This document shows, one piece after another, positions 1 through 64,000 of a stretch of 64,000 bases of DNA. The first letter of the stretch is position 1. Every line of letters begins with the position of its first letter. The translations under genes and the position numbers were made by a program. The notes beneath the pieces were generated by a model. The model worked only from the letters and a program-made list of their open reading frames with translations. It was not told the DNA's origin and made no database searches. The DNA is taken from positions 14,136,001 to 14,200,000 of the forward strand of contig JAGIQG010000016.1 of NCBI GenBank assembly GCA_024679065.1, read 5' to 3'. This DNA comes from Sphyrna mokarran (lineage: Eukaryota).

Positions 1-745
1 AGAAACTGATGCACGAGGACAGCACTGAGTATACAACATTCAATTTACTCCTACTCAAATCATAATCTTCCTTCTGATTTTTGCTATCAAAGTTGATCAC
101 CTCACATTTATTCACAATCTAATGCATCTACCACGCATACACTCACTCAAACATTCTTTTCAAATCACGCTGAAGCATCTCTGCATCCTCCTCACAGCTC
201 ACTCTTCAATCCAACATTGTGTGAGGTGCAAATTTGGATATAATGCATTTATTTTCCTCTTCAAACTCATACTGATCGTGTGGTAACGCACTAGCTATTG
301 CCTGCCAAACAGAGAAATAGTCATTTATTTCAACTCTACGATTCCTGTCTGCTAACTGACTTTTTATCCATCTCGACCCACCATCTGCTCTCCCGTGCAC
401 CTTTACTTCATTAATAATCTTTTCTGTGGGACCTTGGCTAAGGACTTCTAAAAGACTAAATAAACCAATTGACCGGTTCTCCCTGGTCATCTCTGCTCAT
501 TACGCCTAGCAACAGAGAATCGCTCTATGTAGATCTGTCAAGTATGATTTCCGTTTTGGAAATTCCTGCTGACTTTGTCAGATTACACAGCTATTTTCCA
601 AATCTGTGCTATGATACCCTTCGTGATGTACTTCTGCAAATTCCCCTGCTTTCGACGTTAGGCTCACTAATCGCAGCCTCCCTTTTAGAAAGCAGGCTTA
701 CATTCGCTTTCCTCCAACCTACAGGAACCATTCTTCAGTACAAAT
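1..745 (-). mobile_element. Decayed CR1 LINE ORF2 (RT) fragment
   Basis: ORF 206-490(-) contains RWIKSQLADRNRRVEIN and ISKFA, degenerate CR1 RT motifs. Confidence 0.7.
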
Positions 746-1037
746 AATTATTTTAATTAAGTATCTTCAATTTCATGCATAGGCTACTTCAGACTGAACA
801 ATAGCACATTAATAACATAAGCTTAACAAATAGATAACCGTCTTGTGTAGGATTTGAACAATATGCAGCCATTGCTGCTATGGCGAATATATGAAATGTT
901 TTATGATTTAAACTGATTTTGCAAACACGATAACTTGTGAAAATGACTTAATATAGAAAGTGCACTTCTGTATATTCTATTCCTGCGATTTATGCAAATA
1001 ACGTCCTGATTTTTCCTTCAACATTTTCTTTCCTCAG

Positions 1038-1073
1038 AAATCGAAAACGTCAAAAAATTGGTCAGCGAACTCG
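1038..1073 (+). CDS. Microexon 1 (36 nt, phase 1-1), (E)IENVKKLVSEL
   Basis: acattttctttcctcag|AAATCG...GAACTCG|gtgagt. Confidence 0.9.
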
Positions 1074-1370
1074 GTGAGTTTGAAAGGACAATCAAACGTT
1101 TGATCCAAACTGACCACACCGCAACAACAGTGAGCACATGATTAGCCTAATAGACGGAAGACCTCCATTGTCATAACAAAACATAATATGAAATCAGTGA
1201 TAATAGGATCGTTCTAGTTTTACCAGTTAATGTTTACTTCCTGCCCTGATTTTGCTGCCCTCAAATCGCAAGAAAATTCTGAATAACCATTCCTTGTCAA
1301 TTTGCAGCATTATACAAAATTTAGGTTTGGCCAATATGTGAAAAGTGCCCCCCAGCCCCGTTCCCCCATA

Positions 1371-1398
1371 AACACACACACACACACACACACACACC

Positions 1399-1437
<39 letters not shown>
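1371..1437. repeat. (CA)n microsatellite, one interruption
   Basis: Direct reading. Confidence 0.98.
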
Positions 1438-1439
<2 letters not shown>

Positions 1440-2789
1440 TTGAAGATCTGCAGAAAAGAGAGAAACGAAAAAAAAATTCCATTGAAATTTCGTCACATTT
1501 GCTTCGCTGAATCTTACATTATTAATATTCTCAATGTTAAAATTAATCAGAAATTAACTACCAAGTCCATATAAATAGCCTGTTGTGACGTTAGGTCAGA
1601 GCTTGGAATCATGTGACGGATAATTCACTTCCTCACTCCTAAAATTCTGTAAATAGTTGAAAAGGCATGGTTAAGCGTGCAAGGGAAGGCTTTCCTTGGT
1701 GACTGCAAATCGAACAACACGCAAGTTTCGACAAGATCCAGAATATAGCACCTGCTTAGTTGACATCCATTTAAATATTTCTCTATTACCGGCACTCAGT
1801 GGCATTAATGTGTTCCATGCATAAGCCGCAATGAAACAACTCAGCAAAACAAAAGAAAACACTACAGATGCTGACAATCTGAAGAAAACACCGAAAGTGT
1901 TTGAATCCCACAGCAATTTGGGAAAAATCTGTGGACAGAGAAATCAAGCTGAACTTTCAATTTGTGATATGCATTTTGTGACTTTTCTTTTGTAGTATCG
2001 TATTTTTAGTTTTAGCTAATTACCTCATCTGTCTTTATAGAATATTGCTTTAATAGCCGTATGGTTTCCGACAAGGTGTACAATATATTTATAATTCACT
2101 TCGCTCAATCATTTCGAGCTGCGTTCTACTTCAGGAAACCTTGCATTTTAGAAGAAATATTAAAGGCAAACTGCCCGGAAGTGTTTGTTTCTCGTTTTGA
2201 ATCTCCACAAACATGGGCCGAGTTTCCTTCAGGCATGCACAAAATGTAAAGAATATAGGACAGGTAACAGAGAAACAGATCTTCCCCACTTTCTGCCAAA
2301 CTGTAACAGTCCATCTGGTATCCATGTGAAAACAAGCATATTTCTTTCTTTTTTTTTATTCTAACTTCGTAACAATGTGTTCTTTTCTCACACATATGCC
2401 TGTCCAGTTCCGCATTTAATGCATACACCTTAAGATCGCGTCGCGGTAGTCATATCGACATTATTTCCGCGAGTTGACAGGACTATTTGTCAAATCCTTG
2501 TTGGAGAATTGGATCTAGATGGGGTGGGATTCTCCATCCGCGCTTGCGCAAAACCGAGAATCCTACTTGAGGTCAATATAACTTTTCCTGGTCCCACATT
2601 CACCACCTGCTACAATTCTCGTGGTGGATGAATTCCACCCCCGTCCCCAAACCCCCGCCCCCTTGACCCCCTCCAGTTTTTCACTTTCGGACAAAAGACC
2701 ACATTTTCCACTGATTCTGACAAAACACACCATAACTTTGAAGAAGTCTATTAAACCATTTAGGATAAGACTGATAAGCCAGAATCGGA

Positions 2790-3980
2790 CCAGCAAAAAG
2801 GCGTTCGATAATGTGCCTCACAAAAGGTAGCTAGCTGCAGAACGTTAGGGTACACAGACTTGGTGGTGAAGTGTTAGCGTGAATTGACCATTGACTATCT
2901 AACACGATGCAGAGAGTTGGAATAAATGGAAGTTTTTCTGGTTAGCAGTTGGTGATTAGTGGCATGCCGCAGGGATCGGTGCTGGGGTATCAACTGTTTT
3001 CCATATACATAGACGACCTGGAGGAGGGGCTGAATGTAGAGTAAGAAAATTTGTTGATGATACGAAGATGAGTGGAAAAGTGAATTGCATGGAGGATGCG
3101 GAATGGCTGCAGCGAAATTTGGATAGGCTGAGTGAGTGGGCGAGGACCTGGCAGATGGAGCATAATGTTAGCAAATGTGAGGTTATCCACTTTGGAAAAA
3201 AATAATAGTAGAATGGAATATTTTTTAACTGGTGAAACGTTGCAGCAAGCTACCGTGCAGAGGGACCTGGGGGTCTTTGTGAATGAATCGCAAAATCTCA
3301 GTCTGCAGATGCAGCAGGTGATCAAGGAGGCGAATGGAATATTGACCTTTATCGCGAGGGAGATAAAATATAAAAGCAAGGAGGTCTTGCTGCAACTGTA
3401 CAAGGCACTGGTGAGGCCGCAACTGAAGTACTGTGTGCAGTTTTTGTTCCCTTATTTGCAAAAGGGTACATTGGGAGTACAAAGAACGTTCACTAGGCTG
3501 ATGCCGAAGATGAGGGGGTTAGCTTATGAGGAGAGATTGAGTAGATTGGGCCTGTACTCTTTGGAGTTTAGAAGGCTGAGGGGGGGGTCTTATAGAGACT
3601 TAGAAGATGATGAAGGTGCTAGATAGGGTAACAGTGGAGAGATTCTTTCCACTTAGAAAGGAAACCAGAACTAGAGGAGAAAGCCTCAAAATAAGCGAGG
3701 AGGGGGATAGCTTAGAACAAAAGTTGAGGAGGAACTTCTTCTCTTAAAGGATGGTGAATCTCTGGAATTCTCTGCCCATTGAAGTGGTGGAGGCTACCTC
3801 GTTGAATATGTTTAATCACAAGCAGAGAGATTTCTTATCGATAAGGGAATTAAGGGTTATGGGAAGCAGGCAAATAAGTAGAACTGATCCACTTCAGATC
3901 AGCCATGATCTTATTGAATGCGGGGCAGGCTCGAAGGGCTAGATGGTCTACTCATGCTCCTATTTCTTATGTTCTTCTGT
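2790..3980 (+). mobile_element. 5'-truncated CR1 LINE (RT C-terminal part + 3' tail), frameshifted
   Basis: KKAFDNVPHKR; LLQLYKALVRPQLKYCVQF; YEERLSRLGLYSLEFRRLRG; ends ttcttatgttctt. Confidence 0.93.
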
Positions 3981-4904
3981 AAGCCTTTAATTACGTTTTG
4001 GAAAAGTGAAAGGCATTGTTTTCATTAGTTTAGACGCTGGACAGGTAGCAACTGCCGCTAGGTCTCTCACTGACAACAGCGATTAAGACTAAGTTAGTCC
4101 ATTCGAAAATCTAGCGTCACAATGCCTTCTTTCACCAATCCATTAGAATTGGTTTTGAATGATACGCACGGTCCCAGTACCTTAAGTTTGAAGTTATCCA
4201 TCTAGCTACCACAAGAACTGGCTTCCTTTCTCCGAACTTCTTCCCACTGCCTAAGCACTGAACTCCTGTTCTTATTTCAATTTCTCTGGTATGTTCTTCA
4301 TGCCATGCCTGACCTCATCTTGTCCCTAATCTGTATCCATTATTCTCTCTATCATTTGGTTCCTGGGACCTTCTGAAAATCGAACTTCTCTTATTACTCA
4401 TCTGTTGGCTGATATTATTAAAGGTTCCCAAACCTCATGTAATATTGCCCTCACTTTTTAAAATGTCACTATCAGACCTATCCTTCCAGAACTACAATAT
4501 TACACTGCAGTATGCTCTTACAACTGACCTCCACAAGTGTATCTTTTTTTTTAATTCAAAATTCACGGACGTATTATCTACAGATCGATCCAGGAAATCC
4601 ATGCTTTATTGTCTCTAAGCAATGTTTCACTTCTCCACTTGGCCACGTTATCTCCTTTGAGATTAAGTATATCATTCTGAGATGAAAGCAAATTACTACT
4701 GTCTGAGAATCTGAAACAAGAAGAGAAATGCTGAAATATCTCAATAGTTCTGACAGCATCCGCCACTTTTGTCAGGATTGGGGGGGAAAAATCGTCCTCC
4801 CAAATCTTTTCATTTGCTCGGTGGAAATGAACTAAAGTAGTGCATTTATTGTCTATTGAAACCTGGTGGTTAAAAAAAAACTGGAATAATTTCTTGCACT
4901 CATT

Positions 4905-5580
4905 GTTTGGCGCTACTCTTCTTTGGCAATCAAGTCGATAAGGTTGTTAAGAAGGCATACGGAATCTTGGCTTTTATTGGTGGGGGGATTGAATTTCGGA
5001 GCCGCAACGTCATGTTGCAACTGTACATAACTCTGGTGCGGTCGCATTTGGAGTATTGTGTACAGTTCTGGTCCCCACATTATAAGAAAGATGTGGAGGC
5101 ATTGGAGAGGGTGCAGAGGAGGTTCACCAGGATGTTGCCTGGTATGGAGGGCAGGTCTTATGAGGAGAGGCTGAGGGATTTGAGGTTGTTTTCGTTAGAA
5201 AGGAGGAGGCTAAGAGGGGACCTGATCGAAACATATAAGATGATAAGAGGTTTAGATAGGGTGGACAGTGATAGCCTTTTTCCTAGGATGGAGAAAGCTA
5301 GCACGAGGGGACATAGCTTTAAATTAAGGGGTGGTAGTTATAGGACGGATGTCAGAGGTAGGTTTTTTAGCCAGAGGGTGGTAAGGGTATGGAATGCCCT
5401 GCCTGCTGCAGTTGTAGATGCGCCAACTTTGGGGGCGTTTAAGAGGTCCGTGGATAGGTTTATGGATGAAAAGGGAATGTTTTAGGTTAGAGGGTCATTG
5501 CTTTTTCTTATTTAGTCGGCGCAACATCGAGGGCCGAAGGGCCTGATCTGCGCTGTAATGTTCTATGTTCTATGCTCTAT
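4905..5580 (+). mobile_element. Young 5'-truncated CR1 LINE 3' end with open ORF2 C-terminus
   Basis: 192-aa ORF with LVRSHLEYCVQFWSPHYKKDVEALERVQRRFTRM; tail ggccgaagggcctg...(ttctatg)n. Confidence 0.95.
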
Positions 5581-7633
5581 CTCATTGATCTCTTTCATGT
5601 TGTTATCCCGTAGTGACATCAAGCAAATGATATGCAGTCAATCATTTGCTGATGATTGACTGCATCAGCAATCAATTGACTTCGCGTTTGAATACACAGC
5701 AGAGCACGTCGCAAAGCTTGTCAGTACTTATGCATCACCTCTTCCGTATACATCTTGAATCTCGCTGTCCCAGAGGCAAGGTGCTGGACAGTGCTTTAGA
5801 GACTCTCGTGCATGGAAAGGAAGGGATACAGTTTCACCTGCAACCCGTAGGCCCGCCTCTTCACGTACACCCAGAGTCAGAATAGGGTGGAGTTGTCCAT
5901 CATGCACAGTACAACTGGAATGCGAGTGAGATACACGACAAGAAACAAATGGAACTGGTGCATTTCAACTAATGAATGCGTTTAATTAGAATAGGAATGC
6001 AAACTGTCAGAATATAATCAAACTGTTGGTGATGACATGGTGGGGATGAAGGTGGGGAAGTAAAGCCTAACGTGGCACTTAAAAAATTTTGAATAATTAT
6101 GGAAAATTCACTTCCAAGATCAAGATTTAGCCTTAAGGCATCTGAGACCAGCTGATAAAACCAGTGCTTGAATTTCATACTTCGTATTGAAGGAATATCC
6201 TTGTATTGCCGTCTGACTGTTCACTCTATGCAGGATTGTTGTTTTTTTTTCGTTAACCCTTTATTAGTTTTCTACTTGCAATCCCAGATAACATGTCAGG
6301 TTGCCTTCTTAATGCTTACAGGAACTATCAAAAATAATGTTACCTTACAAGGAAACAAGAAAAAAGAATCAGGGTTTCAACTCAAAATAATTTATATTCA
6401 CGATCTTCTCATACATTTATAGGCAACGAGATTCACACGTTTACATGAAGTTGCTTAAAAATTGGAATTTCCGAATGACAAATAGTTAAGTTGGATGTGA
6501 ATGCGGCCAACACCGATATAGTCAATAAATTGTCTGTGTTGAGAGTTTTCTGTCAAATAGTTGTGCAAGTTTGGCATTGACTACAATCCAAACTGAATAG
6601 TTTAGTCGATAAACGCAGGCTTGATAACCCTCTTTTTCTTTCTACGTTATCTCTAATTGTTTTAATTGGCCTTGTTGCTACCTGCATGCGTGAGAGAGCC
6701 CTGAAATATCTACTCGAGATAATGGATTAGACAGCTGTAGTGTGCATGCTGAAGAAAGAGTTTGTCTAACATTTGCAGTATCAGGAGAACTTAAAATGTT
6801 TAGTAAACATTAATTCAGGTGCAAAATTAAATATGATTCAAATACGCAAGGTTGCAACAATCAAAAGGTAATTGGACTTGATAGGCTCAAATCTTCGGCA
6901 GCAGCTGTGATCCTTTGGGGGTTTTAAGTAAGTGATAAATTTGTCGATATTATGAGCAAATTCAAAGTTGTTCTCAACTTTAAACAGTTATTGAAAAAAA
7001 ACAAATGCATATTATCTGCTCCCGCTGTTTAAGCGAGGTTGGAAAGCTAAACGAAACCTTATAACCCTTTAAGAACCTTTTGTCGGGATGAGCGGAATAG
7101 GGAGACAAGCGCTTCTTTTTTTTCTAAATGTCGAAGTGCCATCAATGGACGTTTGGAAGAAGTGTATGTGGAAGTTCATAACACAGATAATTAATATGCA
7201 GTGCTGGAATCCAAAGTAATAATTTAAAAGGACTATCCAAAAAGTCTAAAACTGCTATCCTTTAGATCCGCCTGATAGAACGTATGCAAAAACAATATAA
7301 GTTTCAGGTATAGAAAGTTGGCAGTTACAAAGCACAGGGACTAGGGATGCCAGGCTCATGATGAACGGAGGTGAAATGGATCGTCTCACATGGCTATAGT
7401 CAAATACCTGTCGTCCACAGCCTTAAGCTACGATAAAAGGGTTCAGCAAGGCTGAAAGTTAATTGTAATGAAATGTGTCCCTGTAGCTCTTTGTTAAAAC
7501 TTACAATCTAAATCTACAGAGGAAAACATTGTGGTGCCTTGGGAGCGCTAATTAAAGAAAAGCATAAGTCCAAAGCCATTTGTGCATTTCTCAAATTGCA
7601 CTTTTGATGCATTATTTTCACTTTTACTGGTAG

Positions 7634-7660
7634 ATGAAGAATTGCGGAAAAAGAAAGCAG
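7634..7660 (+). CDS. Microexon 2 (27 nt), DEELRKKKA
   Basis: cacttttactggtag|ATGAAG...AAAGCAG|gtaaaa. Confidence 0.85.
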
Positions 7661-8590: not shown

Positions 8591-8778
8591 GTATAGCCCC
8601 AATCAGTTGGACCGAATGTCATGGTTTTCCATCTTGAATTACATGCCAACCTGTGTAGCACACATTTCCTGCACCTTGCCTTGTAGATGCAATGGATTTA
8701 GCACTGCTCCTCTTCAGGTTCCAGTTCTCCATATCATGAAAACTGTAACTGATGTTTTAAACATTATTTTCGTTGCAG

Positions 8779-8814
8779 AGATAACAGCTCTGCAGAACAA
8801 AATGCATAACTTAG
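8779..8814 (+). CDS. Microexon 3 (36 nt), EITALQNKMHNL
   Basis: attttcgttgcag|AGATAAC...AACTTAG|gtaagg. Confidence 0.9.
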
Positions 8815-9219: not shown

Positions 9220-9760
9220 AGAACATAAGAACGTAAGAAATAAAAGCAGAAATAGGCCATTTAACCCCTCGAGCCTGCCACACCATTCAATAAGATCACG
9301 GCTGATCTGAAAGTGGTTCAGTTCCACTTGCCTGCGTTCTCCCCATAACCCTTAATTCCCTTGTTATTCAGAAACCTATCTACCTGTGACTTAAACATAT
9401 TCAACGATGCAGGCTCCGCCGTTTTAATGCGCGGAGAATTCCAGAAATTCCGTACCCTCTGAGAGAAGTTCCTCCTCAACTCTGTTCTAAACTGACTCCC
9501 CTTTATTTCGAGGTGATGTCTTCTAGTTCTTGTTTCCTTTCTAAGTGGAAATAATCTTCCAGCCTCTACCCTATCTAGCCCCTTCATTATCTTATAATCT
9601 TCATAAGATCACCCCTCAGCCTCCTAAATTCCAACGAGTACAGGCCCAACCTACTGAATCTCTTCTTCTAAGCAAACCCCCTTATCTCTAGTATCAAACT
9701 GGTGAAACTTTTCTGTATTGCAAGACCAATATATCCTTTCGCAAATAAGGAAGCCAGGAT
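9220..9760 (-). mobile_element. CR1 LINE 3' fragment
   Basis: ORF 9318-9587(-) MKGLDRVEAGRLFPLRKETRTR; reverse tail agaacataagaacgtaagaa. Confidence 0.9.
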
Positions 9761-10025: not shown

Positions 10026-10299
10026 GTAAGCTCGATGTCCGCCCCCATCAATGTACCATAATGTCCTTCGTAGAAAGCTTTGTGTGTTCTTGCTATCACA
10101 ACTGCAAATAGAAATCGAAACAATGGCCAGCTTCATAAGATAACTGAAAATAAGAACAAATGTGATAGTGACCTTATCCCAACTTCCCTGACTACTCACC
10201 ACCCACTACCCCATATCCATATCCTCTCCATCCACCTCTCCTCCCGCCCTTCCCACCTCCACCCCACCCCCAGCCCCAGAAACAAGTCCCAGAAACAAG

Positions 10300-10681
10300 G
10301 TGCATGCATTTGGCAGGTCGTGCGAGGGCTGCTTCTGGATGTTACTTCAGGAGTGGCCTAGTGCTTCATGTCGTTAGTGTATGCTTAAACTGGACCATCA
10401 GATGGGCAACCTGACAGCTCAGAGACTATCGCTGTTGCTGTGCAGACGCGTAGATTTGGGCCTGTGTCTGCGGGAGTTTGTGCGTTCTCCCCGTGGTTGC
10501 GTGGGTTTTCTCCAGGTGCTCCAGTTTCCTCCCACATCCCAAAAATGTGCTCTTAGGCTGATTGGGTAACAAATTGTCCCTATATTGGTCTCTATATGTC
10601 ATTAAGACGTTAGGATGGCGGCGCGGGCTCGTTGGACCGAAGGGCCTGTTTCCCGTGCTGTGTTGTTCTTTGTTCTTTGTT
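10300..10681 (+). mobile_element. HE1-like SINE with shared upstream leader and CR1-type tail (copy 1)
   Basis: Similar along its length to 28170-28740 and 48335-48810(-); tail ggcgcgggctcgttggaccgaagggcctg...(ttctttg)n. Confidence 0.85.
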
Positions 10682-10689
10682 AACAGTGA

Positions 10690-17681: not shown

Positions 17682-17717
17682 AGGTACTTAAACTGAAAAC
17701 GAATTTGAGTATGGCAG
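17682..17717 (+). CDS. Microexon 5 (36 nt), EVLKLKTNLSMA
   Basis: ctgcttctttcag|AGGTAC...ATGGCAG|gtaaga. Confidence 0.9.
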
Positions 17718-18804: not shown

Positions 18805-18831
18805 ACGAACAGCTGCAAATCAAAACAAAAG
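18805..18831 (+). CDS. Microexon 6 (27 nt), DEQLQIKTK
   Basis: gttactatttttag|ACGAAC...ACAAAAG|gtaagg. Confidence 0.9.
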
Positions 18832-21912: not shown

Positions 21913-21948
21913 GAATGGAAGATTTGAAAAGGTCTCTGGAAGAAGCAG
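21913..21948 (+). CDS. Microexon 7 (36 nt), GMEDLKRSLEEA
   Basis: ttccttttatttggttag|GAATGG...GAAGCAG|gtaact. Confidence 0.88.
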
Positions 21949-24344: not shown

Positions 24345-24371
24345 AAACTAAGTTGCGTAATAAAATTAAAG
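24345..24371 (+). CDS. Microexon 8 (27 nt), ETKLRNKIK
   Basis: cttgtttcttttag|AAACTA...ATTAAAG|gtacta. Confidence 0.87.
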
Positions 24372-25519: not shown

Positions 25520-26805
25520 AAGGTATCGCCCTTCGCATGCTTGACTCTTTCACAACGTGTCCCATCAAATGTAATTGTAGAAAGCAAAGACTCGTCGAGT
25601 ATCTGGATACATAGCGACATGGATAGAAGGTTGGCTAGCTGACACTGAATGGCATAAATGGGTCATTTTATGGCTGGCAGAAAGTATAATGACTGGTGTG
25701 CCAAATGGATCAATGCTGGGGTCCCAATTATTCAACATATGGATGAAGGGACTGAGTGTTGCGGGTTGACTTAGAAGTAAAAGCTGGACAGTTTAGGCTT
25801 GTATTTGTTGGAGCTCAGAATAGCAAGACACAACGTGATCGAAACAGATGAGGCCTTGCGGGGCAAAGCAGAGTGATGTGGTGAGGATGTTTCTCCTTGT
25901 TGGAGAATCTAGAAAGAAGGATTACAGATTTAGAATAAGGAGTTTCCCACTTCAGGCAGAGATTTGGAAGATGACACAAAGCTTGGAGGTGTTGTGGATT
26001 GTGTGAGGGATGTCAGAAGGTGCAGTGAGACATAGATAGGATGCAAGACTGGGCGGGGAAGTGGCAGATGGTCTTCAACTCGGATAAGTGTGTGGTAGCT
26101 CATTTTGGCAGATAAATGGGATGAAGGAATATAGTATTAAGGGTAAGAGTCTTAGTAGTGGAAGATCAGAAGGATCTTGGGGTCCGGGTTCATAGGATTT
26201 CAAATTGGCTTCGCAGGTAGAGGATGTGGTTAAGAAGGCGTATAGAGTACTGGCCTTCATCAATCGAAGATTTGAGCTTTGGAGTCGGGAGATAATGCTG
26301 CATCTGTTTAAGACCCTGGTCAGACCCCATTTGGTTCTGTTTGTCTCATTACAGGAAGAATGTAGAAGCCATTGAAAGGGTGCAGACGAGATTTACAAGG
26401 ATGTTGCCTTATGATGATAGGTTGAGAGAACTCGGTCTTTTCTCCTTGGAGAGAAGAAGGATGAGAGGTGACCTGATAAAAGTATATAAGATGTTGAGAG
26501 GTATTAATTGGGTAGATTCTCAAATGGCTGCCACAACAGGACACAGGTTTAGCGTGCTGGGGAATAGGTATCGAGGGCATATAGCGGATAAATTTTTCAT
26601 TCAGAGAGTGGTGGGTGCGTGGAATCGGCTGCCGACGTTAGTGGTGGAGATGGATTCTATAAGGTCTTTTAAGAGACTTCTGGATGAATACATGGGACTT
26701 AGTAAAATTGAGGTTTAAGGTTAAGCCTCGTAGGTAGAGATGTTCGGCGCAACTTGTGGGCTGAACAGCCTGTTTGTGCTATAGTTTTTCTATATTCTAT
26801 GTTCT
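25520..26805 (+). mobile_element. Two adjacent or nested CR1 fragments (older ~25520-25965, younger ~25965-26805)
   Basis: ORF 26341-26718 HYRKNVEAIERVQTRFTRMLP...LFSLERRRMRGDLIKVYK; (ttctat)n tail. Confidence 0.9.
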
Positions 26806-27877: not shown

Positions 27878-27913
27878 AAATCCAAAAAATGAAAGAAACT
27901 GTCCTCGAATTTG
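27878..27913 (+). CDS. Microexon 9 (36 nt), EIQKMKETVLEF
   Basis: ctactttctttctag|AAATCC...GAATTTG|gtaagt. Confidence 0.92.
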
Positions 27914-28169: not shown

Positions 28170-28740
28170 TTGATGCCTCTTTTTTTTACATCCACAGGCG
28201 ATTTGGTCCGCCTTGTTGGCCAACAATGGGCATACACGCGGTGGGTCGTGCGAGGGCTGCTCTTGGATGTTGCTTTGAGAGTTGCATAGTGCTTCACGTC
28301 GTTAGTGTACGCTTAAACTGGACCAATTGACCGGTAACACGACAGTTCAGTGACTATCACTGTTTGCTGTGCAGTTACAGGGATCTGGGTCAGATCTCAA
28401 TGGCTTGGGTCAATGTCTGTGGGAGTTTGCACATTCTCCCCGTGCTTGCGTGGTTTTTCTCCAGGTACTCCAGTTTCCTCCCACACCCCAGAAACATGCT
28501 TTTAGGCAGATTGTTGTTAATAAGTGTCCCTAATTTGGATCCCTTTTAATCTGGCGCACATATAATTCCCTAAATTTGCATCCCTTTATTGTGGAGTCCA
28601 CTAGGTGTAGACAAAAGTCGTAGGAAGAAGAAGGATTGGAATAAGGCACTCACTGAGTGCTAAAATGGGCGGCGCGGGCTTGTAGAGCTGAAGGGCAGGT
28701 TTCCTGTGCTGTGCTATTCTTTGCTCTTTGTTCTTTGTCA
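28170..28740 (+). mobile_element. HE1-like SINE with shared upstream leader (copy 2)
   Basis: gtcgtgcgagggctgc...tagtgcttcacgtcgttagtgtacgcttaaactggacc leader, SINE core, CR1-type tail. Confidence 0.85.
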
Positions 28741-29853: not shown

Positions 29854-29880
29854 ACACGAGACTGGAAAGCAAAGATAAAG
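29854..29880 (+). CDS. Microexon 10 (27 nt), DTRLESKDK
   Basis: caaatgccatcag|ACACGA...GATAAAG|gtaagg; weak polypyrimidine tract but consensus peptide. Confidence 0.85.
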
Positions 29881-32185: not shown

Positions 32186-32221
32186 AAGTGGAAAAGATTC
32201 AAAATCAGTTCTTGGATTGTG
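32186..32221 (+). CDS. Microexon 11 (36 nt), EVEKIQNQFLDC
   Basis: tttgtcaccttctcactcaag|AAGTGG...GATTGTG|gtaagt; tandem AAG-AAG acceptor. Confidence 0.87.
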
Positions 32222-34161: not shown

Positions 34162-34188
34162 AACAACGTCTGAACAGCAAAGGAAAAG
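34162..34188 (+). CDS. Microexon 12 (27 nt), EQRLNSKGK
   Basis: ctaattaacgttgcaattag|AACAAC...GGAAAAG|gtaaag. Confidence 0.85.
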
Positions 34189-35583: not shown

Positions 35584-35619
35584 CATTGGAAAAAGCCAAG
35601 AAAGAGATTACTGATATTG
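35584..35619 (+). CDS. Microexon 13 (36 nt), ALEKAKKEITDI
   Basis: ttattttccaatag|CATTGG...GATATTG|gtgagt. Confidence 0.9.
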
Positions 35620-37857: not shown

Positions 37858-37884
37858 CAACAAAGCTGAGTAACAAAACCAAAG
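37858..37884 (+). CDS. Microexon 14 (27 nt), ATKLSNKTK
   Basis: cttcacttttctccag|CAACAA...ACCAAAG|gtgaga. Confidence 0.92.
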
Positions 37885-41925: not shown

Positions 41926-41961
41926 AATTGGAAAACGAAAAGAATGACGCATTTGATGGTG
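41926..41961 (+). CDS. Microexon 15 (36 nt), ELENEKNDAFDG
   Basis: ttattttctatag|AATTGG...GATGGTG|gtgagt. Confidence 0.88.
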
Positions 41962-42619
41962 GTGAGTACGATGATTTCTTTGCATTTACTGTTGTCGTCA
42001 ACGAGGTCAGAAACTCCCACGAGTTTTATGCAGCCAGCCTAGACCATAAATTTTGCATTTGGAATTTTAGCAAAGTAAGTGTAAGATAATTGACTTCAGG
42101 TATGATTGAAACATCCCACTAGAGAGTTAATATCAAACAAATGTATTTAAGAACACAGCTAACACATCATAAGACAATTTGCAATAACTTCTACCAATTA
42201 CAAGCAAGAAAAAAAAAAACGTGTTATCGTTTAAACTTCAAAGCTCCAAATACTGTTCTACCCAACCGGTCTTCTTAAAACATCCACCCATTCCAGGCTT
42301 AGCAGAAAATAAAAATGTCCACTTGATGTTGATTTTTTTTTAGGGGTTGGAAAGTCAGCTTGAGTAACTCCATTGGAAGGAGAATTGAAGCTGTGAATTT
42401 CCAGCCCTGGAGCTTCCAGCCTGGCTCAAGGTGAACATAGAAAATTGTTTGCCTCTATCTAGCAAGTCACAAATAGCAAAGTTTTCACTCCTGAAAAGTA
42501 AGAAACGCTGCTCCCAACACTGAAACAGTTGGCGGTGTTTCAAATACCAGGAAGAGATACAGAAATACTGCATTTCAGTCTGCAATCCAATAGATTGTTA
42601 CTCGCTAGCAGCCAAAACT

Positions 42620-43085
42620 AAGAACATAAGAAATAGGAGCAGGAGTAGGCCATCCAGTCCTTCGAACCTGTCCCGCCATTCAATAAGATCATGGCTGATC
42701 TGAAGTGGATCAGTTACACTTTCCTGCCTGCTCCCCATAACCCTGAATTCCCTTATCTATCAGAAATCTATCTACCCGTGACTTAAACATATTCAACGAG
42801 ATAGCCTCCACCACTTCAATGGACAGAGAATTCTGGAGATTCACCGCCCTCTGAGAGAAGAAGTTCCTCGTCAACTCTGCCCCTTCTCCCCTTATTTTGA
42901 GGCTGCGCCCTTTAGTTCTGTTTCCCTTTCTAAGTGGAAAGAATCTCTCTACCTCCACCTTATCTAGCCCCTTCATTATCGTGTATGTCTCTATAAGATA
43001 CCCCCTCAGCCTTCTAACCTCCACCAGCCCAGTCTATTTAATCTTTCCTCATAAACTAACCTCCTCAACTTCGATATCAACTGGA
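42620..43085 (-). mobile_element. CR1 LINE 3' fragment (same subfamily as 3132-3980 and 9220-9760)
   Basis: ORF 42710-43024(-) RRLRGYLIETYTIMKGLDKVEVERFFPLRK. Confidence 0.93.
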
Positions 43086-47625: not shown

Positions 47626-48334
47626 CAAACTCTGCAAATAGTTGCATGTTTCCCTCCAACCTCCTGCTCATCATATGCATTCCATTGGACTCCAACATCT
47701 ATCTCTCTCTCTCTCTCTCTCTTCATTCCTCAGTCGAACGGTATAAAATATCAGAAAAATCCCCCTTTCCCTACTTGCCCTTTACTCGCTTGATTTCCTG
47801 AGTTCGATACATGATCGAAACAACACTATGTCGATCTGGATCCTTGCTAATCTAATAGCCAGCTCTTTAATCAGATTTGAAGATGTTTCTCTGGATTTGT
47901 AATGCCTTTCGATTGCTCTGGAAGTCACATAAACCCTTATATTTCAAACTTACTTTGCTAACAATGGAAGCAGTGTAATTGCCTTACATGTCTCGAAGTC
48001 ACTGGATTGTGAATCCAATGCCTATCACAACGCTATCAGGTGACGCTATCACAAAAAAGTGTTTGCTCCTCTGCTCCAATAGAAAAATTAAGCACCAATA
48101 GAAAATTAAGTGAGAAGTCGAATTGGAGCTGAAAAAGCATGGAAATGAACATTTGTCTTTGATATAACACTTCAGTTCACTGGGATATCTCAGCCACATG
48201 ATTTCAATGATGTGATGCCTTCCTCGTATTTGATAGGGTAGCATCGCAGTTATGCCATTGGCCTGGTGACACAAGTATTGGAGTTTTCATCCCACAACCA
48301 TTGCGAGGCTTCATAAATTCAATGAAATTAAACG

Positions 48335-50409: not shown

Positions 50410-50436
50410 AACAAAGAATGCTGAAAAAGGATAAAG
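50410..50436 (+). CDS. Microexon 16 (27 nt), EQRMLKKDK
   Basis: attgcgattttttag|AACAAA...GATAAAG|gtaagt. Confidence 0.92.
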
Positions 50437-52002: not shown

Positions 52003-52038
52003 TCATAGGAAAACTAAAAGAGAGTATCACTGAATTGG
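52003..52038 (+). CDS. Microexon 17 (36 nt), VIGKLKESITEL
   Basis: tttttttctgctttag|TCATAG...GAATTGG|gtgagg. Confidence 0.88.
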
Positions 52039-52362: not shown

Positions 52363-52389
52363 AACAAAGATTTGAGAACAAAGACAAAG
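52363..52389 (+). CDS. Microexon 18 (27 nt), EQRFENKDK
   Basis: ttatgctccctccag|AACAAA...GACAAAG|gtgagg. Confidence 0.92.
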
Positions 52390-52984: not shown

Positions 52985-53020
52985 AAATATCAAACCTGAA
53001 AGCAAGTCTGCAAGACGCAG
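52985..53020 (+). CDS. Microexon 19 (36 nt), EISNLKASLQDA
   Basis: gttttcttttatgatag|AAATAT...GACGCAG|gtcaat; weaker donor. Confidence 0.85.
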
Positions 53021-54854: not shown

Positions 54855-54881
54855 AAGAAGAGCTTAGTAGGACAGACAAAG
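54855..54881 (+). CDS. Microexon 20 (27 nt), EEELSRTDK
   Basis: tcatcctctttcag|AAGAAG...GACAAAG|gtaagg. Confidence 0.92.
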
Positions 54882-55129: not shown

Positions 55130-55830
55130 TTCATTCAGTTGCGCGAGTTATGCGTCAGTGGTTTGCCAGCATTTATTAGCAATCTCTAACTCACTTCAGC
55201 TGAGTGGCTTACACTCAGAAAGCATTTCAGAAAGCAGTTGAGAGTCAAACGCATTGATATGGCTCCGGGGTCATCCGGACTGTTTTGGACAGTGATAGCC
55301 TTTTTCCTAGGATGGAGAAAGCTAGCACGAGGGGACACAGCTTTAAAATAAGGGGTGATAGTGATAGGACGGATATCAGAGGTAGGTTCTTTACCTTAAG
55401 GGTGGTTCGGGAGTGGAATGCCCTGCCTGCGGCAGTTGTAGATGCGCCAAGTTTGGTGGCGTTTAAGAGGTTAGTTGATAAGTATATGGAAGAGAAGGGA
55501 ATGGTTTAGTTTGGAGGGTCATTGCTTTCTATATTGGTCAGCGCAACATCGAAGGCCGAAGGGCCTGTTCTGTGCTGTAATGTTCTATGAGTCAAATATA
55601 GGGTAAAGACAGCAGATTACGTTCCCTAAAGGACGTTAGTAAATCAAATGAGTCTTTGCTCCAATCGATAGTAGTTTCATGGTCATCAGTGCATTCCCAA
55701 TTCCACATTTTTTTATTGAATTCAAATTGCACCCCTGCTGTGGCGGCATTCGTACCCGGGTCCACAGACATTAGCTGAGCTTCTGGATTGATAGTCTAGC
55801 AATAATAAAACTCGGTGATTACCTTCCCCT
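55130..55830 (-). mobile_element. Deu/SacSINE-like SINE interrupted by a + strand CR1 3' fragment (55285-55590)
   Basis: Inserted piece DSDSLFPRMEKASTRGHSFK closely matches 5262-5570; SINE resumes after it. Confidence 0.85.
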
Positions 55831-56509: not shown

Positions 56510-58030
56510 ACCAGAATATTGATTCAGTGGGAGGAAGCAGAGGCTGATGGTCAAAGATTGTTTTGTGCCTGGAAGCCTCTGCCCAGTGGGGTGCCACAAG
56601 GATCGGTGCATTTCTGTTTGAAAAATCTAGATGTGAATTGAGAAATATGTTTCAAAGATCACAGGTGTCACGAAAATTGGTGGTGTGATAAATAGCGAGG
56701 TGGAAAACCTTAGATGCCATGTTAATATGGACAAGTTGAACAGCAGGTCAGAACATTGGTCGATGCAGATTAACCCTGAAGAACCTGTGGTGATGCATTT
56801 TGGGGGAACGAAGAAGGCAACGGAATACATAATGAAAGACAGAATGCTGGGAAGTACAGAGATGCAGAAGATTGCATGTCAATGACCTCTGAAGAGAGCA
56901 AAACATCAGGATTAGATGATTAAGAAGACATATCGGATAATTTTCTGTATTAGCCAAGGCACGAATTTTAAGAGTAGGGAGTGTACGATGCAGCTGTATA
57001 AAATAGTTATGACGCACGGTTCAGCAATAGGTTGCCAGTTTCTTTTTTGTACAATATACAAAAACACAAACATTTGAAGCAAGAACAGTCCACCAGGTCT
57101 TCAAGCCTGTCCTGCCACTCAGTACAATTATGCCTGATGTTGGTCTCGGCTTATTTTTCTGCCTTACTTCCCCAAAGCCTTCCATTCCTCACTCTGTCAT
57201 ACATTTATCCACCTCCAATTTAAATACTTCAAATGATTGAGCCGCCATTATTCTTCATACAGTGACTAATCAGCCTCCACGAGAAGAAATATATATGTAT
57301 CTCAGTTTCAAATGGTCAGCCCATTATCTTCTAGCTGCCCCCTTGTTCAGGACTCTCTTACTAGTGAAAACATATCATCATATATCTTTCAAAAAACCCT
57401 CAGGATCTTATATCTTTGGCTAACATCACCCTTCACGCTGCAAAACTCCAAGGATTACAAGCCCACACACTTGAATCTCTCTTGATAACACTCTTTGTCC
57501 AGATTGCTATAAGGAATGCGTGACAATAACAGACAGAGTACCCATCAAATTGTTGAAAAGGATTATGGATTGTGGAAAGGATAGATGAGATTTACAAGAA
57601 TAGTTCCAAGGATGAGAAACTTCAGTTCTGAGGATAAATTATAGGGAATGGCACTGTTGTCTTGGAGAGAAGAAAGCCAGGAGCAGATTTGTTAAGACGT
57701 TCAAATTCATAAGATAACTAGACAGAAAAGATGACGGGAAATTCTTCCAAGTCACAAAACGATAAAGAACGAGAAGGACACATTTAATGTGATTTGCAAA
57801 AAAAAACAATGTGAGACAAATACTTCGACACGCAATGAAACGTTTAGGTCTGCAATGCGCTTCTTTGAAAGAATGGTGGAGATAGCTTCAATTGAGGAAT
57901 TCAAGGGCGCTTTAGATTATTATTTGAAGAGAAAAAAAAAGTGCAGAGGTGCGAGAAAAGGGCAAGGACATTAAGTCATTGCGCTCATTTGGCTAGCTGA
58001 TGTGGACATGATGTGAAAACTGTATTCTTC
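56510..58030. mobile_element. Cluster of decayed CR1 fragments (+ 56510-57030, - 57060-57500, + 57560-58030)
   Basis: agtggggtgccacaaggatcggtg (SGVPQGS); VMHFG; later 3' motifs. Confidence 0.7.
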
Positions 58031-58519
58031 TGTAGCACAGTAATTCTGTGGTTCAATGGTATGCAGCTGATGTACAGCTATAGACTATATTCTGGAAACT
58101 GAGGTTGGGTTGTGTTTTACAAAAGGCTAAGGCACAACCAGCTAAGGGGTCTCATTCTATGCTTTCTGTGATGTGAAAAAAAATGCAATAGTCTAAATGA
58201 CCAACTATTGCCTCATCTCAAAGCGCAGCCTAACAAATGATTTTGAAGTTTGGTCAGTATTTCAGTAGTCAATAGCACACAACCTCATTGCAAAGGCAGG
58301 AATGAAAGAAGTGCCAAAAAATCAATTGTTTTGTTTCGTGATAGTATCTGTGCAATAGGCATTGTCCCAGGATACGGTCTGTCACCTTGCTTTGTTTTCA
58401 TTTTTTGGCTGTGGAACTTTCACATCTAGCTGAGACAGAAACTTAAGTTTGTCTCTTATCTTGCTACAAAAGGAGTACAGCTAAAGTTCTTGAGGCTGAT
58501 TCCTGTGACAGTAGGTCTG

Positions 58520-58945
58520 CTACATAAGGAAAGACTGAGTCAATTCGGATTAGATTCATTGGAGTTGAAAGAAGTGAGAGGCGTCTCATAGTAATATATA
58601 AATTTCTAATAGGGTTAAGCAGGGTAGATTCTGAAAGGATGTTCCCGTTGGTGGGGGAGTCCGGAGTAGCGGTCACAGTTTGAGAATAACCTTTTATATC
58701 TGTGGTAAGGAGAAAGTTGTTCACCCAGAGAGTCGTGAATGTGTGGAACTGACCAGCACAGAAAGTAGCTGAGGCCAAAGTATTATGTGATTTCAAGAAA
58801 AAAATAAATATAGCTCTTGGGGCTAGATGAATCAAGGGATGTGGGAGGGAGTGGAATCAGGATATTGAATTTGATGTTCAGCTATGATCATGGAGCAAGA
58901 TCGATGGGCCCAATGCCCGCCTACTGTTTCCAGTTTCTACGTTTC
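58520..58945 (+). mobile_element. CR1 3' fragment
   Basis: ttcacccagagagtcgtgaatgtgtggaac; tail cctactgtttccagtttcta. Confidence 0.8.
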
Positions 58946-59094
58946 CAGCAACAGAAAGACACGATCATTCATTCAATACTCAGTCACCAATGAATGTTCA
59001 AACTTTAGTATGTATGCGCATGCCTGGCATGGAGTTCGGACCTGTTATATTCAGAGTACAATTCACTTCAGCATTATTTATATTTAATTTTCAG

Positions 59095-59130
59095 AGCTGG
59101 AGAAACAAAAAACCGTTCTTGAAAATACAG
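59095..59130 (+). CDS. Microexon 21 (36 nt), ELEKQKTVLENT
   Basis: tatttaattttcag|AGCTGG...AATACAG|gtcagt. Confidence 0.9.
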
Positions 59131-60335
59131 GTCAGTGGAATGTCCTGGTTCCATACATTGATGCTGGAAAGGACATATATATGCTCCCCGTTTCTCCATT
59201 TGCCATTGGCTCAGTGAATTGTGATTCTGTTGTAGGCAGAAGAAAGAAAAGATAAGAGTGATTTTCTTCAATTTAAAGTGCTGACAGGAAAGAAATCCCT
59301 CACTGAAATTTCACACTGTGTCTCCCTCCTTTGGAAACCTGCAACGAGTATTTTTACGTTGCACCCTCGTGCCTATTGCCTCGTGAATGCGCTACAACTA
59401 GCTATTCCTGGTCATTAACTTTCATTGCAACAGCCTTTGTATTGGCATCGTGCGTATGATAGAAAAAGTAGAAATTTCATCGGCCTAATTATTGGCAATA
59501 CTTAAGATTTTTGCCTTCAATCTTCAACATTGCCCGTTTCCTCATCATGGAACCCATCCCTCTCCAGAACAACTTCCTGAGCTTCGAAAACGTAGCTCCA
59601 GGTTTGACGACAAGCTCAACTTTCAAAACTAAAATTGGCTCAATCGCCGCTATTGTTTCACTCAACGCTACCTGCCCCCAATCTCAACTTGTAACAGTGT
59701 ATTTCAGTGTTCCGCTTGAGCTTGCATTCTGATGATACCCTCGTACATTTAGTGCCTTTGTTATTTAGAAATTTGATTATTCCAATGTTCTTCTGGGCAA
59801 AGTACGATTATTCAAACACGTCTCTCGTTATCAATGCCAAATCACCAAAACACAGGCCCAGTTCCTTAACAGATATAAATTCCCTTTATCCATACCTCTG
59901 AGCTTATTGATCTGTTTAGACTTCTGCGATTACAAAAATTCAATAGAAAATTTTGGACCTAACATTAAAAGTCCCTTCATGGCCTTGCACGCCGCTAGTC
60001 ATCATTGCCTTCTGGCAGCACTGTAATCTTTCTGTGGTAGTCAAATACTAGCGTCGTGTGCACCCACAGTGCGATCGCAGCATTTGTTTTCTCTCCCTCT
60101 TCATCTTCCTTCTATTCTTGTCCATCTCTTTCTTATTTTTCTACTATACTGATTTGCAGATCTGCGTCTATTTCTGTCGTTCTTGTTACTTTTGCTATCA
60201 CTTTGTTCTTCTCCGCTTACGTTCCCTTCACCAAAAACTCTTTTCATTCCTTATTTTTGACGTCCTTCCCTATTTTGCTCTCGTCTACCATGTGCTTCAA
60301 TCAATCGTACGATTAATAGTAACTATTTATTTCAG

Positions 60336-60362
60336 AAAACAGTATGAAAGAAAACATTAAAG
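60336..60362 (+). CDS. Microexon 22 (27 nt), ENSMKENIK
   Basis: ctatttatttcag|AAAACA...ATTAAAG|gtaaat. Confidence 0.9.
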
Positions 60363-60509
60363 GTAAATGTAAAGCACCGCGTTCCCATACTAAAGTCAGC
60401 AGAAGGATGTTTCCTGATAACGAGCTGTATTGTCAAGAATCACATAGAATAATGTGGGATATGATACACCAAAGAAACAGCGCTGTCAGAGCAAATAACA
60501 AAGGGGTCA

Positions 60510-61190
60510 TTGAGATATACAGAACAGAAAGAGGTCTTTCGGCCCAACTCACCCATGTTGGCCAGGTGTCCAAAACTGAACTAGTCCCATTTACCTATAG
60601 TTGGCCCATATTCTTCCAGCCATTTCCCATCGATCTGTCAATCCTACAATGGTAGTAAAAAGAGGGTAATTTTACCCTCTTGCCTGGCAGTTCATTCCAT
60701 AAATGCACTGCACTCTGTGTGAAATAATTGCCTTCAGATCCTTTTAAATATTTGCTCTCTCAGATTAAACCAATACCATTTAGTTTTAAACTCCCCTATT
60801 CTGGGTAATGTACATTGTAAGAAGTCTCACAGCACCAGGTTAAAATCCGACAGGTTTATTTGGTAGTAAGCATTGCAAGCTTTTGGGGCTTCGTCAGGTG
60901 AGTGGAGAGAAATCGTCTGAAAGCTGGTGACGTTTACTACCAAATAAACTTGTTCGACTTCAACCTGGTGTTGTCAGACTTCTTACTGTGTTTACCCCAA
61001 TCCAACACCAGCAGCTCCACGTCATCATGTACCTTGACCCATTCATCTTATCTATGTCGCTCATGATTTTATAAAGCTCTGTAAGGTCAACCTTCATTAT
61101 GCTACATTTCAGGGAGGAAAAACCCAGCCTATCTAGCCTCTCCTTATAATTCATATGTCGAGTCCATGGCGATATCCATGCATTAAAAAA
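60510..61190 (-). mobile_element. CR1 3' fragment interrupted by a palindromic element
   Basis: MNYKERLDRLGFSSLK...VDLTELYKIMSDIDKM. Confidence 0.8.
60815..61025. mobile_element. Short palindromic element, probably Penelope-like-derived
   Basis: ~53-bp imperfect inverted arms 60817-60869 / 60934-60986. Confidence 0.7.
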
Positions 61191-61520
61191 ATCCATATTC
61201 CCTCATCTGACACTATCTGCAGAGGTCTATATTTTCGATTCCTCATATGGCTAGACTCCGTTTTTCGGTGAGAAGCAACTCATTTCGACAGGTATTCCTC
61301 ACAATGAATTCCAGACCTGATATTCATAACACATATTTCAGTGAAAACGTTGCCTCGGAATGACCTTGTGAAATAAAGATCTTTTTCACAAGTGAAAACA
61401 GTATTACTGTGTATTCTACTCAAAGCGTTCGTCACTTTTTGGGCCACCCTTATGCTCCTTTTTATTTCATTGGCAGCCCACATGCCAAAATAACGAAAAT
61501 GTTCTTTGCTTTTGCTACAG

Positions 61521-61556
61521 AAATAGATATGTTGAAGGAGCGTCTTCAGGATACAG
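61521..61556 (+). CDS. Microexon 23 (36 nt), EIDMLKERLQDT
   Basis: ctttgcttttgctacag|AAATAG...GATACAG|gtaaat. Confidence 0.92.
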
Positions 61557-61779
61557 GTAAATGGCAAATATTGATTAGGAGTGCATTTTGAAACTCAGCT
61601 TCAGTGAAGCAATATCTTCCAAGTGAAAATGTGCATATTCTAGAGGACGATGTTTCCCTTCACCCTATAGGACCAAGCAACATTTTGTCAATAACGCATT
61701 GTTTATTCTATTCAGGAGAGTAGGGATCATATGGGAACGTGCAGCTGTGCAACAAAATTGGGGCGAAATGTGGTCTAGT

Positions 61780-62120
61780 TGTAACTTCATTGAACTAGTC
61801 ATCAAACTGCTAAGACTAAAACGAGTTCAAGAGGTTGTTGATTCGGTTAAGAAAATCGGCAATGGAAAGTTAGCCTTAATAGTCGAGATCGTGGTGATTT
61901 CACTGACTGTCGTAAAAAAAACCATCTGGTTCATTATTGCCCTTCAGAAAAGTAGATCTGTCACCCGTAGCTGGCCTAGCCTACATGCGACTCCAGATCC
62001 GTACCAATGTGGTTGCAGTTTTACTGCCCACTAAAGTTGTCCAGCAATCCAGACTGTGCTAAGGCAGTTAGGAACTCACAAGAAATGCTGACTTTGTCGG
62101 TGGTGCTCAAGACACATGAA
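61780..62120 (+). mobile_element. Deu/SacSINE-like SINE
   Basis: accatctggttcatt...ctacatgcgactccagatcc...aatgtggttg. Confidence 0.65.
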
Positions 62121-63264
62121 ATAATCAAGAGCAAAAATATCAAAAATGGTCCACAGAACTCAAAATAGAGTCCAGCAACCGCACACAGAATTATAACCTA
62201 ACATTTCCACTCCTTGTTGTCATCGATGACCCAATCTGCAACAACATAACACAGTTGCATAAATTTCATTTCGCCACTAACATTGCCCTAACAATGAAAC
62301 TTTGAAAGATAAATATGGAATATATTCATTGATGAACGATTATCATCGTTTCACATGAGGAAGACACATACTCTCTGCTATACGATATCGAATACAGGTT
62401 CAAATGGCCTCGTAAATGGGGATCACGCCACTGCAGCAACAGTTTCAATAGAAGATGAGTGAAGCAAAGTTATAAATAATTATTACATCTGGCATTATGC
62501 TCCTCGCTAAATTGTATCAACTTGAATAGAAGTTAATATGGAGATGCTGACTAACTCTTAGTTATGCGATTCCACAACTTATTACAAATCAGTCAAGTTG
62601 GTTCTCAAACGATAAGGTCGGAAGCAAAACTTCAATTTAGAGAGGCGTCAACAAGGAACGCAATAAGAATCTAGGGCATTCATTGCTCCCAATGCGGTCT
62701 CTGCTACATGAAGTAGTGTGGAAATTAAGAGCTGCCTAAGTGACTGCTTTGTGGAATAACTTCGAACAGGGCGCGAGTGTTCCTATCCCTTGCTACTTCA
62801 TCTCAATATTTTGTTCTCATGCTCCTTTGAAGTCCAATTCAAACTGGAGTAACAGCAATACATGTTCCGATTGCGCATGTTATCATCTGTAAATTTCAAA
62901 ATTGAGTTCCAGAACTTTCGAATGTGACTGTTCTCTTCAAATTTGACGCCCTTTTTTCGAAGATCATTTTTTTCCCAACGCAACACGCTTACATCCACCC
63001 TTCCCTCTCCCCAACTGGGTTATTTGTCCCTACTTTTTGTGTCTGTTCTCTCTGAGCACTCAGCTTTACTTTTCAATTAACATATTATGCTATCCAATCT
63101 CAATGCCCCATAAGAACCTTCTACAGCTCTTTGCACAATGAATAACACTACCGTTGCTTCGTACGCTACGCATTCTCTATTCGCCCCCACCTAACACTAA
63201 CCTTCTACTCTTCTCCATCTGTTGCACCCACCCGTGTTCATAACAAATGCTCTAACTTTAGCTC

Positions 63265-63360
63265 TGGCGATGAATCACGTTCTCTCGAAATGTTAATTCT
63301 GCTGTTCTCTTCACAGATGCCACCAAGTCAGTTGAGTTGTTCCAGCATCTTCGGTTTTCA
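63265..63360. mobile_element. Short dispersed repeat resembling a Penelope-like terminal repeat (related pieces near 1850-1960, 4715-4765, 15130-15200, 43925-44030)
   Basis: tcgaaatgttaattctg...cacagatgc...gagttgttccagcat; family assignment from memory only. Confidence 0.5.
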
Positions 63361-63572
63361 CATGTAGCAGTCAATGTCGGCCATCTCTTGCAAAGCTTGT
63401 TTCCATAGAAGGGCGCAGAAACAAAACGTTGGCATCAGCAATTAGCGGAACGGTGGCACATCAGTAAAGAATATTTGAATGAAACGAAATAAGCTTGACA
63501 TGATAACAATGTTGATGTTAAGGAAAGAAGATAATAGTTCGGAAATAGATAAGCCTCACTATCTAAACCTCA

Positions 63573-63775
63573 GCTCCTCCGACATCTTTATATCCCGGCG
63601 GTAAATGCAAATCTACCCAATAGTAATAGGTGCTTGAGTTCCATGCTTGGATTTATCAGATATTTTTAAAAAGTTCTGCTACATATTCAACAGTAACCCA
63701 ACAAGGAGCTCAAGCACCCACCACTATTGGGCAGATTTTGCACCTACCACCGGGTTATAAAGACGTCAGACGAGC
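63573..63775. mobile_element. MITE-like foldback element
   Basis: ~78-bp imperfect inverted arms 63573-63650 / 63698-63775 with an AT-rich spacer. Confidence 0.7.
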
Positions 63776-64000
63776 AAGGATTTCGAAACCGAAGTTTGCG
63801 TATCTACTTGCTGCCTTTAATGGAAAATCAGCCTTCTGCCAATCTCAGTGATTGTGAATTGAAATGATGTCAACAATTACCTCCGAATCTTCTTTACCTG
63901 CTGCTCGCTAACGTGGATTTGTGCGTGTATGGTTTTGCATTGAATGGGCTCTCCAATCAAGCGAAATATGTTCTCTACATCTGCACGGATAAAATTCATT

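Follow-up and report, generated by a model that had tools for sequence, protein, structure and literature searches.

A gene of Sphyrna mokarran (genome, 2.77 Gb) spans at least 552 kb, consists of a long array of 27- and 36-nucleotide (nt) microexons, and closes with a B30.2 exon. The window that we analyzed, 64,000 nt at positions 14,136,001-14,200,000 on the + strand of contig JAGIQG010000016.1 (C668), falls entirely (1..64000, +) within this host gene. Judging from its sequence, the gene has a somewhat better than even chance of encoding a soluble protein, with a very long coiled coil and a C-terminal B30.2 domain but no immunoglobulin (Ig), transmembrane (TM), RING, or B-box segment, which we would describe as a freed and lengthened butyrophilin tail.

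Microexon array and coiled-coil rod

The window holds 22 microexons, all in phase 1 and on the + strand between 1038 and 61556, that together supply 234 codons of coiled coil. A reading of the window from its sequence alone (the sequence-only reading) had placed a 36-nt exon near each window edge, and these are indeed the first (1038..1073) and the last (61521..61556) of the 12 exons of this length. The other ten lie at 8779..8814, 17682..17717, 21913..21948, 27878..27913, 32186..32221, 35584..35619, 41926..41961, 52003..52038 (with an alternative acceptor 6 nt inside, at 52009), 52985..53020, and 59095..59130. The ten 27-nt exons are at 7634..7660, 18805..18831, 24345..24371, 29854..29880, 34162..34188, 37858..37884, 50410..50436, 52363..52389, 54855..54881, and 60336..60362. 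The two lengths alternate except at 8779 and 17682, which are adjacent 36-nt exons; no 27-nt exon was found between them. A weak 27-nt candidate at 48083..48109, which ends in A and falls under the model threshold, is possibly an optional exon or no exon.

A length scan for AG...GT segments gave 13 candidates of 27 nt and 14 of 36 nt on the + strand, compared with 1 and 2 on the - strand. A position weight model seeded with 19 window exons was run on both strands of an 864-kb region. In the first round, at scores above 16 and with the seeds included, it returned 55 exons of 36 nt and 44 of 27 nt on the + strand, 98 of these 99 being free of stop codons, and none of either length on the - strand; after retraining, the + strand counts were 59 and 68, and the - strand counts were again zero. 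Because the excess of both lengths is confined to one strand, the array is more than a chance pattern.

Microexons continue beyond the window in both directions, as the sequence-only reading expected. The most 5' confident one is at C668:13,768,287 (+) and the last 27-nt exon at C668:14,318,086 (+). The terminal B30.2/PRY-SPRY exon follows at C668:14,320,311-14,320,831 (+), 120 kb downstream of the window. Its suggested presence downstream was borne out by a scan of the flank: it is a single intact exon in phase 1, with 172 open codons and a TAG stop, and closes the array. It matches SPRY in Pfam (PF00622, E=2.4e-15), and a profile built from this exon and nine relatives has the B30.2 of BTN3A1 as its best match among solved structures (E=7.7e-34); the AlphaFold model of the domain is weak (pLDDT, 54.7). 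The likely 5' limit of the host gene is the B30.2 exon of an upstream paralog, gene 2, at C668:13,715,950 (+). Since the array reaches up to 13,768,287 and the B30.2 exon starts at 14,320,311, the host gene covers at least 552 kb from its first confident microexon to its terminal exon. At scores above 20 it has 107 microexons (49 of 36 nt and 58 of 27 nt; 1,110 codons), which join without a single stop; at scores above 8 there are 124 (1,272 codons). The median exon spacing is 3.6 kb.

We consider it improbable that the array does not make one full-length product, either because internal promoters, short transcripts, or heavy skipping give shorter proteins or because it is partly decaying. Confident exons are in places as much as 42.6 kb apart, most database relatives are of modest size (175-460 amino acids [aa]), and one paralog has a TGA in its B30.2, all of which would fit such an arrangement, but the exons are stop-free over the full span, no further B30.2 of the family occurs between 13.72 and 14.32 Mb of C668, and relatives of 945 and 1,697 aa also exist.

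Among the 106 neighboring exon pairs of the set scoring above 20, 87 alternate, 14 are 27-27, and 5 are 36-36; the longest alternating run has 21 exons. A 36- plus 27-nt pair makes 63 nt, a 21-residue unit that is hydrophobic at positions 2, 5, 9, and 16, the a/d pattern of three heptads. The hydrophobic share is 0.90-0.96 at positions 2, 5, and 9 of the 36-nt exon and 0.93 at position 4 of the 27-nt exon; position 12 of the unit is small or hydrophobic, and position 19 is Lys in 41 of 58 cases. A hydrophobic period of 3.5 was the strongest of nine tested. The term "heptad microexons" in the sequence-only reading therefore applies to the 63-nt pair, which is a whole number of heptads, and not to the 27- or 36-nt exon alone. 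The rod is composed of 18% Glu, 17% Lys, 13% Leu, and only 0.4% Pro. A coiled coil rises by ∼0.148 nm per residue, from which we calculate that the rod would be ∼165-190 nm long. The strict coil pattern is found in 45 of 72 27-nt candidates, and several of those that do not fit, rich in Ala, Asp, Ser, or Pro, look like linkers. RefSeq isoforms of related proteins are exactly 9 aa apart (catshark, 442/451/460; chimaera, 221/230; ray, 353/362 and 369/378), which fits optional 27-nt exons; this evidence of splicing is indirect and comes from species other than S. mokarran.

The locus is also set apart by its base composition. Over C668:13.636-14.236 Mb (window included) and five paralog loci, the observed/expected CpG ratio is 0.55-0.71 across the bodies of the host gene and gene 2 and 0.60-0.66 at the paralog loci, all in AT-rich DNA; for contrast, two TRIM loci have ratios of 0.36-0.39, and C668 from 14.276 Mb onward has 0.23-0.44. 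CpG that is barely depleted points to germline methylation that has long been low throughout the family. Because the entire locus is CpG rich, CpG islands are useless there as a promoter marker. The introns in the window contain dispersed SINE/LINE-like repeat fragments (5065-5567, 9226-9596, 10294-10681, 26334-26479, 28222-28732, 42619-42985, and 55286-55589) and AC microsatellites at 1372 and 43705. The next gene downstream, at about C668:14,344,600-14,359,500 (+), has exons that by eye are Myb/SANT-like (MADF type) and a long, C-rich, low-complexity intron.

Receptor, TRIM, and lectin domains

Scans of the window found no Ig, TM, B30.2, or lectin exon, in agreement with the sequence-only reading, which had proposed a butyrophilin- or B-G-like receptor with an IgV-IgC-TM front upstream. 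The rear half of this proposal holds, in that the tail is related to butyrophilins and a B30.2 exon in phase 1 lies downstream; the front half was not found. Profile hidden Markov models (HMMs) made from butyrophilins of shark relatives detected nothing better than E=0.38 for IgV or IgC2 on either strand of the 864 kb, while a fish butyrophilin used as a control scored 2.9e-15 and 5e-9. The 5' end of the gene must lie in the 52-kb gap between the stop codon of gene 2 and the first microexon. In this gap, strict and relaxed filters both gave no candidate TM exon, in a scan that had no true TM exon as a positive control; the relaxed splice filters let through 99 of the 107 real microexons. Among 124 + strand open reading frames of at least 56 aa in the gap, 122 had no Pfam match, and the remaining two were the SPRY of gene 2 and a below-cutoff match on intronic sequence. 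As these searches yielded neither an Ig domain nor a TM exon, the status of receptor is unsupported.

In the genome as a whole, the IgV and C2 exons of butyrophilin type are concentrated at C1548:94-112 Mb. On C668, no butyrophilin IgV or C2 match was found beyond 3.4 Mb (searches of the genome with 39 matches, 97 of 97 candidates scored, and with 28 matches, 88 of 88 scored), and general V-set matches extend only up to 5.3 Mb, among the 150 of 1,261 candidates that were scored. These positions and the lack of Ig in every protein model of the family speak against a true butyrophilin or B-G receptor, whose Ig-TM exons would lie far upstream, with gene 2 and the host gene (gene 1) as alternative 3' ends, or whose Ig would have diverged past detection. 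In favor of such a receptor are the butyrophilin-type exon grammar, the two family members inside the TRIM/butyrophilin cluster of C1548 (99.1 and 101.4 Mb), and the 5' end of gene 2, which is outside the DNA examined; we rate it as very improbable.

The exon grammar was compared with one control of each kind from the same genome. In the true butyrophilin, the last 4 kb upstream of the B30.2 contain phase-1 exons of 21, 27, and 27 nt; the exons of the TRIM measure 96, 234, and 116 nt. By this comparison, the tail of the host gene is butyrophilin-like and not TRIM-like. A tblastn search with two shark or ray TRIM N termini recovered the TRIM control at 1e-74 and 7e-67 and found no RING or B-box in the 864 kb; motif scans found none either, and the 96/234/116-nt coil exon set is absent from the host gene. 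A TRIM gene was rejected. We also ruled out a golgin, myosin, or centrosomal coiled-coil gene, because the array terminates in a B30.2 exon.

The other option raised in the sequence-only reading, a long-necked type II C-type lectin like CD23, did not survive. It draws on the 63-nt/21-aa unit, which we take to be comparable to the CD23 stalk repeat. But the last exon is a B30.2, a crude motif scan of 664 kb found no lectin exon, and none of 24 Lectin_C matches is on C668 (150 of 152 candidates scored; domains split by introns could be missed). Rejected on the terminal exon and the lack of a lectin match on C668, this option is extremely improbable.

Paralogs and relatives in cartilaginous fishes

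This type of B30.2 occurs at eight loci of the S. mokarran genome. Six are on C668 (8.56, 11.34, 11.88, 11.93, 13.72, and 14.32 Mb); the others, at 99.10 Mb (with one TGA) and 101.42 Mb of C1548, are within the TRIM/butyrophilin cluster. Gene 2 (C668:13,637,602-13,716,459) is a tandem paralog on the same strand, with ∼20 exons of its own 27/36-nt array seen and an intact B30.2. Among five further loci for which 30 kb of 5' flank was included, four have several 27- or 36-nt coil exons; the 11.88-Mb locus has only one or two and may be a short form (C668:11,879,157, +) with almost no microexons in the 30 kb upstream. This member and that at C668:11,925,604 (-) face each other, 46 kb apart. The copy at C1548:99,103,312-99,103,836 (-) has one TGA inside the match and 55% identity to a basking shark protein; it is possibly a pseudogene. 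The surrounding region, C1548:91-113 Mb, is a large cluster in which B30.2 matches number more than 100; it also has butyrophilin Ig exons and, at 97.46-97.51 Mb, eight matches to C-type lectin domains, each in a single exon.

Relatives are found in databases for chimaera, little skate, catshark, a numbray, basking shark, and epaulette shark. Their automatic names mislead: TRIM39/58/69-like, A33-like, BTN3A1-like, and even "nuclear-pore anchor-like." Six relatives that were scanned have SPRY only, one of them with a weak PRY. A word-based protein search, which is lossy, found no close ortholog of the host gene; the best single-domain matches have 42-47% identity. Searches of this kind returned in one case no family member from cartilaginous fishes, in another only two, and in a third only the query's own cluster, so the size of the family in databases is a lower bound. 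A profile of the host's 21-aa unit found 13, 4, 3, 2, 1, 1, and 0 units in seven relatives, against means of 0-0.2 after shuffling. Two TRIMs and one butyrophilin had none, and a neck protein of bowfin that does not belong to the family had one. Since the family is present in chimaera and in elasmobranchs, its distribution implies an origin before these lineages split.

Annotation appears to struggle with such genes. In catshark XP_038668997.1 (P0135), some of the modeled N-terminal part derives from a repeat with many copies in the S. mokarran genome, an example of annotation failing on genes of this kind. In bowfin MBN3300211.1 (P0212), one model unites a type II TM segment, a repeated, glycosylated neck, and a B30.2 outside the family; it may represent a genuine extracellular protein with this domain or an artifact of model fusion. 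Three Atlas clusters of SPRY proteins of 1,277-1,802 aa (55, 79, and 137 members; scores, 0.79-0.92) passed a filter that removes any cluster with a V-set, RING, or B-box member. They may belong to the same or a parallel family, and we note them as a lead only.

In a B30.2 tree of 39 rows, the 15 family rows form one side of a branch with 100/100 support, with BTN and TRIM rows mixed on the other side of that branch; the tree is midpoint rooted. This tree omits P0012, P0286, P0258, P0141, and the C1548:99.1-Mb copy; an earlier tree by a quick method had included the long-branch row P0012. Because similarity to the family decided which rows entered and the tree had neither a one-clade test nor an outgroup root, we do not claim a donor from it. 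Descent from a butyrophilin that lost its Ig and TM exons would be the simplest inference, which the tree neither supports nor rejects.

Proposed function and comparison with known systems

In the reading that we favor, two chains, from one gene or from two paralogs, would zip into a parallel coiled-coil rod of the length calculated above, and the end of the rod would carry a pair of B30.2 heads beyond a long, hinged spacer. Because every exon is in phase 1 and a multiple of 3 nt long, exons could be skipped or duplicated freely, so that splicing would set the length of the rod; splicing together with exon duplication would alter its reach, and optional 9-aa linker exons would set the hinges. 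The heads might bind a protein ligand with avidity, the rod serving as a spacer or tether; B30.2 domains bind ligands in TRIMs and butyrophilins (PMC8813856, PMC12841164). If the BG "zipper protein" and enterophilin are a guide, the protein would most likely act in the cytosol, either at the cortex or cytoskeleton or as part of innate sensing.

Several points weigh against this reading. The dimeric state, the location, and the ligand are argued from inference and analogy; the B30.2 tree puts the family inside neither the butyrophilins nor the TRIMs; the search of the gap did not yield the first coding exon, and the reading is drawn from genomic DNA; and the TM-exon scan had the limit given above. 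Moreover, three of nine related gene models, from skate, chimaera, and epaulette shark (P0268, P0198, and P0258), open with a hydrophobic stretch, and the skate protein carries two RefSeq accessions, which usually imply transcript support. RefSeq models of microexon genes may also be cut at the 5' end.

These N termini argue for a different form of the protein, in which a short leader exon (signal peptide or anchor) would be spliced onto the coil and the rod with its B30.2 heads would be secreted or anchored, in a collectin- or vespryn-like layout. The gap contains three leader-like phase-1 candidates, one of them at C668:13,727,855, and the bowfin model, unless fused, would be a precedent. 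But the candidates match the background of 2.1-2.7 per equal length, and N-glycosylation sequons in the rod are not in excess (7, with 5 expected). A Met followed by a hydrophobic stretch also arises at 7 of the 107 microexons when they are read upstream into the pyrimidine tract, so the hydrophobic starts are possibly annotation artifacts. A signal peptide, first attractive because of the three relatives, was downgraded in light of these artifact starts and the background rate in the gap. Three relatives with multiple RefSeq isoforms have polar first residues. A leader is thus possible, though on balance unlikely, and from the sequences we favor the soluble form over a secreted or anchored one. 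Should the rods nevertheless be extracellular, they could represent an ancient pattern-recognition system of cartilaginous fishes derived from the butyrophilin tail: secreted or surface-tethered rods of up to ∼190 nm that have B30.2 heads in place of lectin, C1q, or fibrinogen ones and whose reach is set by splicing of more than 100 interchangeable microexons. We find this extension unlikely.

With this gene, the immune toolkit of the oldest lineage of jawed vertebrates gains one more architecture built on B30.2. Annotation conceals the family behind TRIM, BTN, and nuclear-pore labels, given mostly to fragments. The gene also indicates that BG-style runaway expansion of butyrophilin-type tail exons took place in cartilaginous fishes too, with other exon sizes, with the B30.2 kept, and apparently without an ectodomain, which is relevant to the role that the tails of BG and BTN may have by themselves. 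With more than 100 symmetric microexons, the gene also offers a case in which to examine how microexons are spliced and how proteins grow by modules.

Among the closest known systems is guinea pig enterophilin-1, which reportedly combines a long leucine zipper or heptad rod with a B30.2 and lacks Ig and RING. Compared by description only, it differs in being mammalian and, reportedly, in having a rod far shorter than that of the host gene, and the two are probably separate derivations. Enterophilin-1 is reported to partner with SNX1 and to lower surface EGFR (PMC13749957).

Butyrophilins (BTN/BTNL, such as BTN3A1) share with the host gene the phase-1 heptad microexons and a B30.2 that occupies one exon and is immediately preceded by a 27-nt exon, and BTN3A1 is the best solved match of the family profile. 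They differ in that IgV, IgC2, and TM were not found in the host gene, whose B30.2 is on a separate long branch, and in that its coil exceeds 1,100 residues, compared with a few heptads in BTN (PMC8813856, PMC4046983). Chicken BG genes have a long heptad tail of many microexons that varies in length, with 13-36 tail exons of 21/24 nt, and a soluble BG tail, the "zipper protein," regulates actin-myosin in the brush border (PMC4046983). BG is described as a single IgV plus TM, with no B30.2 (PMC8813856). Unlike BG, the host gene has at least 107 exons, of 27/36 nt, and a B30.2, and Ig and TM were not found. Class IV TRIMs (TRIM39/TRIM21-like) also place a B30.2 after a coiled coil, and RefSeq uses TRIM names for relatives of the host gene, which, however, is without RING and B-box, without exons of 96/234/116 nt, and in a separate B30.2 group.

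A literature search by titles and abstracts found no description of this family, members of which may be mentioned in reviews of fish B30.2 proteins or in supplements (BTN lists of PMC12841164). The component parts are known, and their combination and scale are apparently undescribed. By the defining features of those groups, the host gene is outside BTN, BG, TRIM, and CD23.

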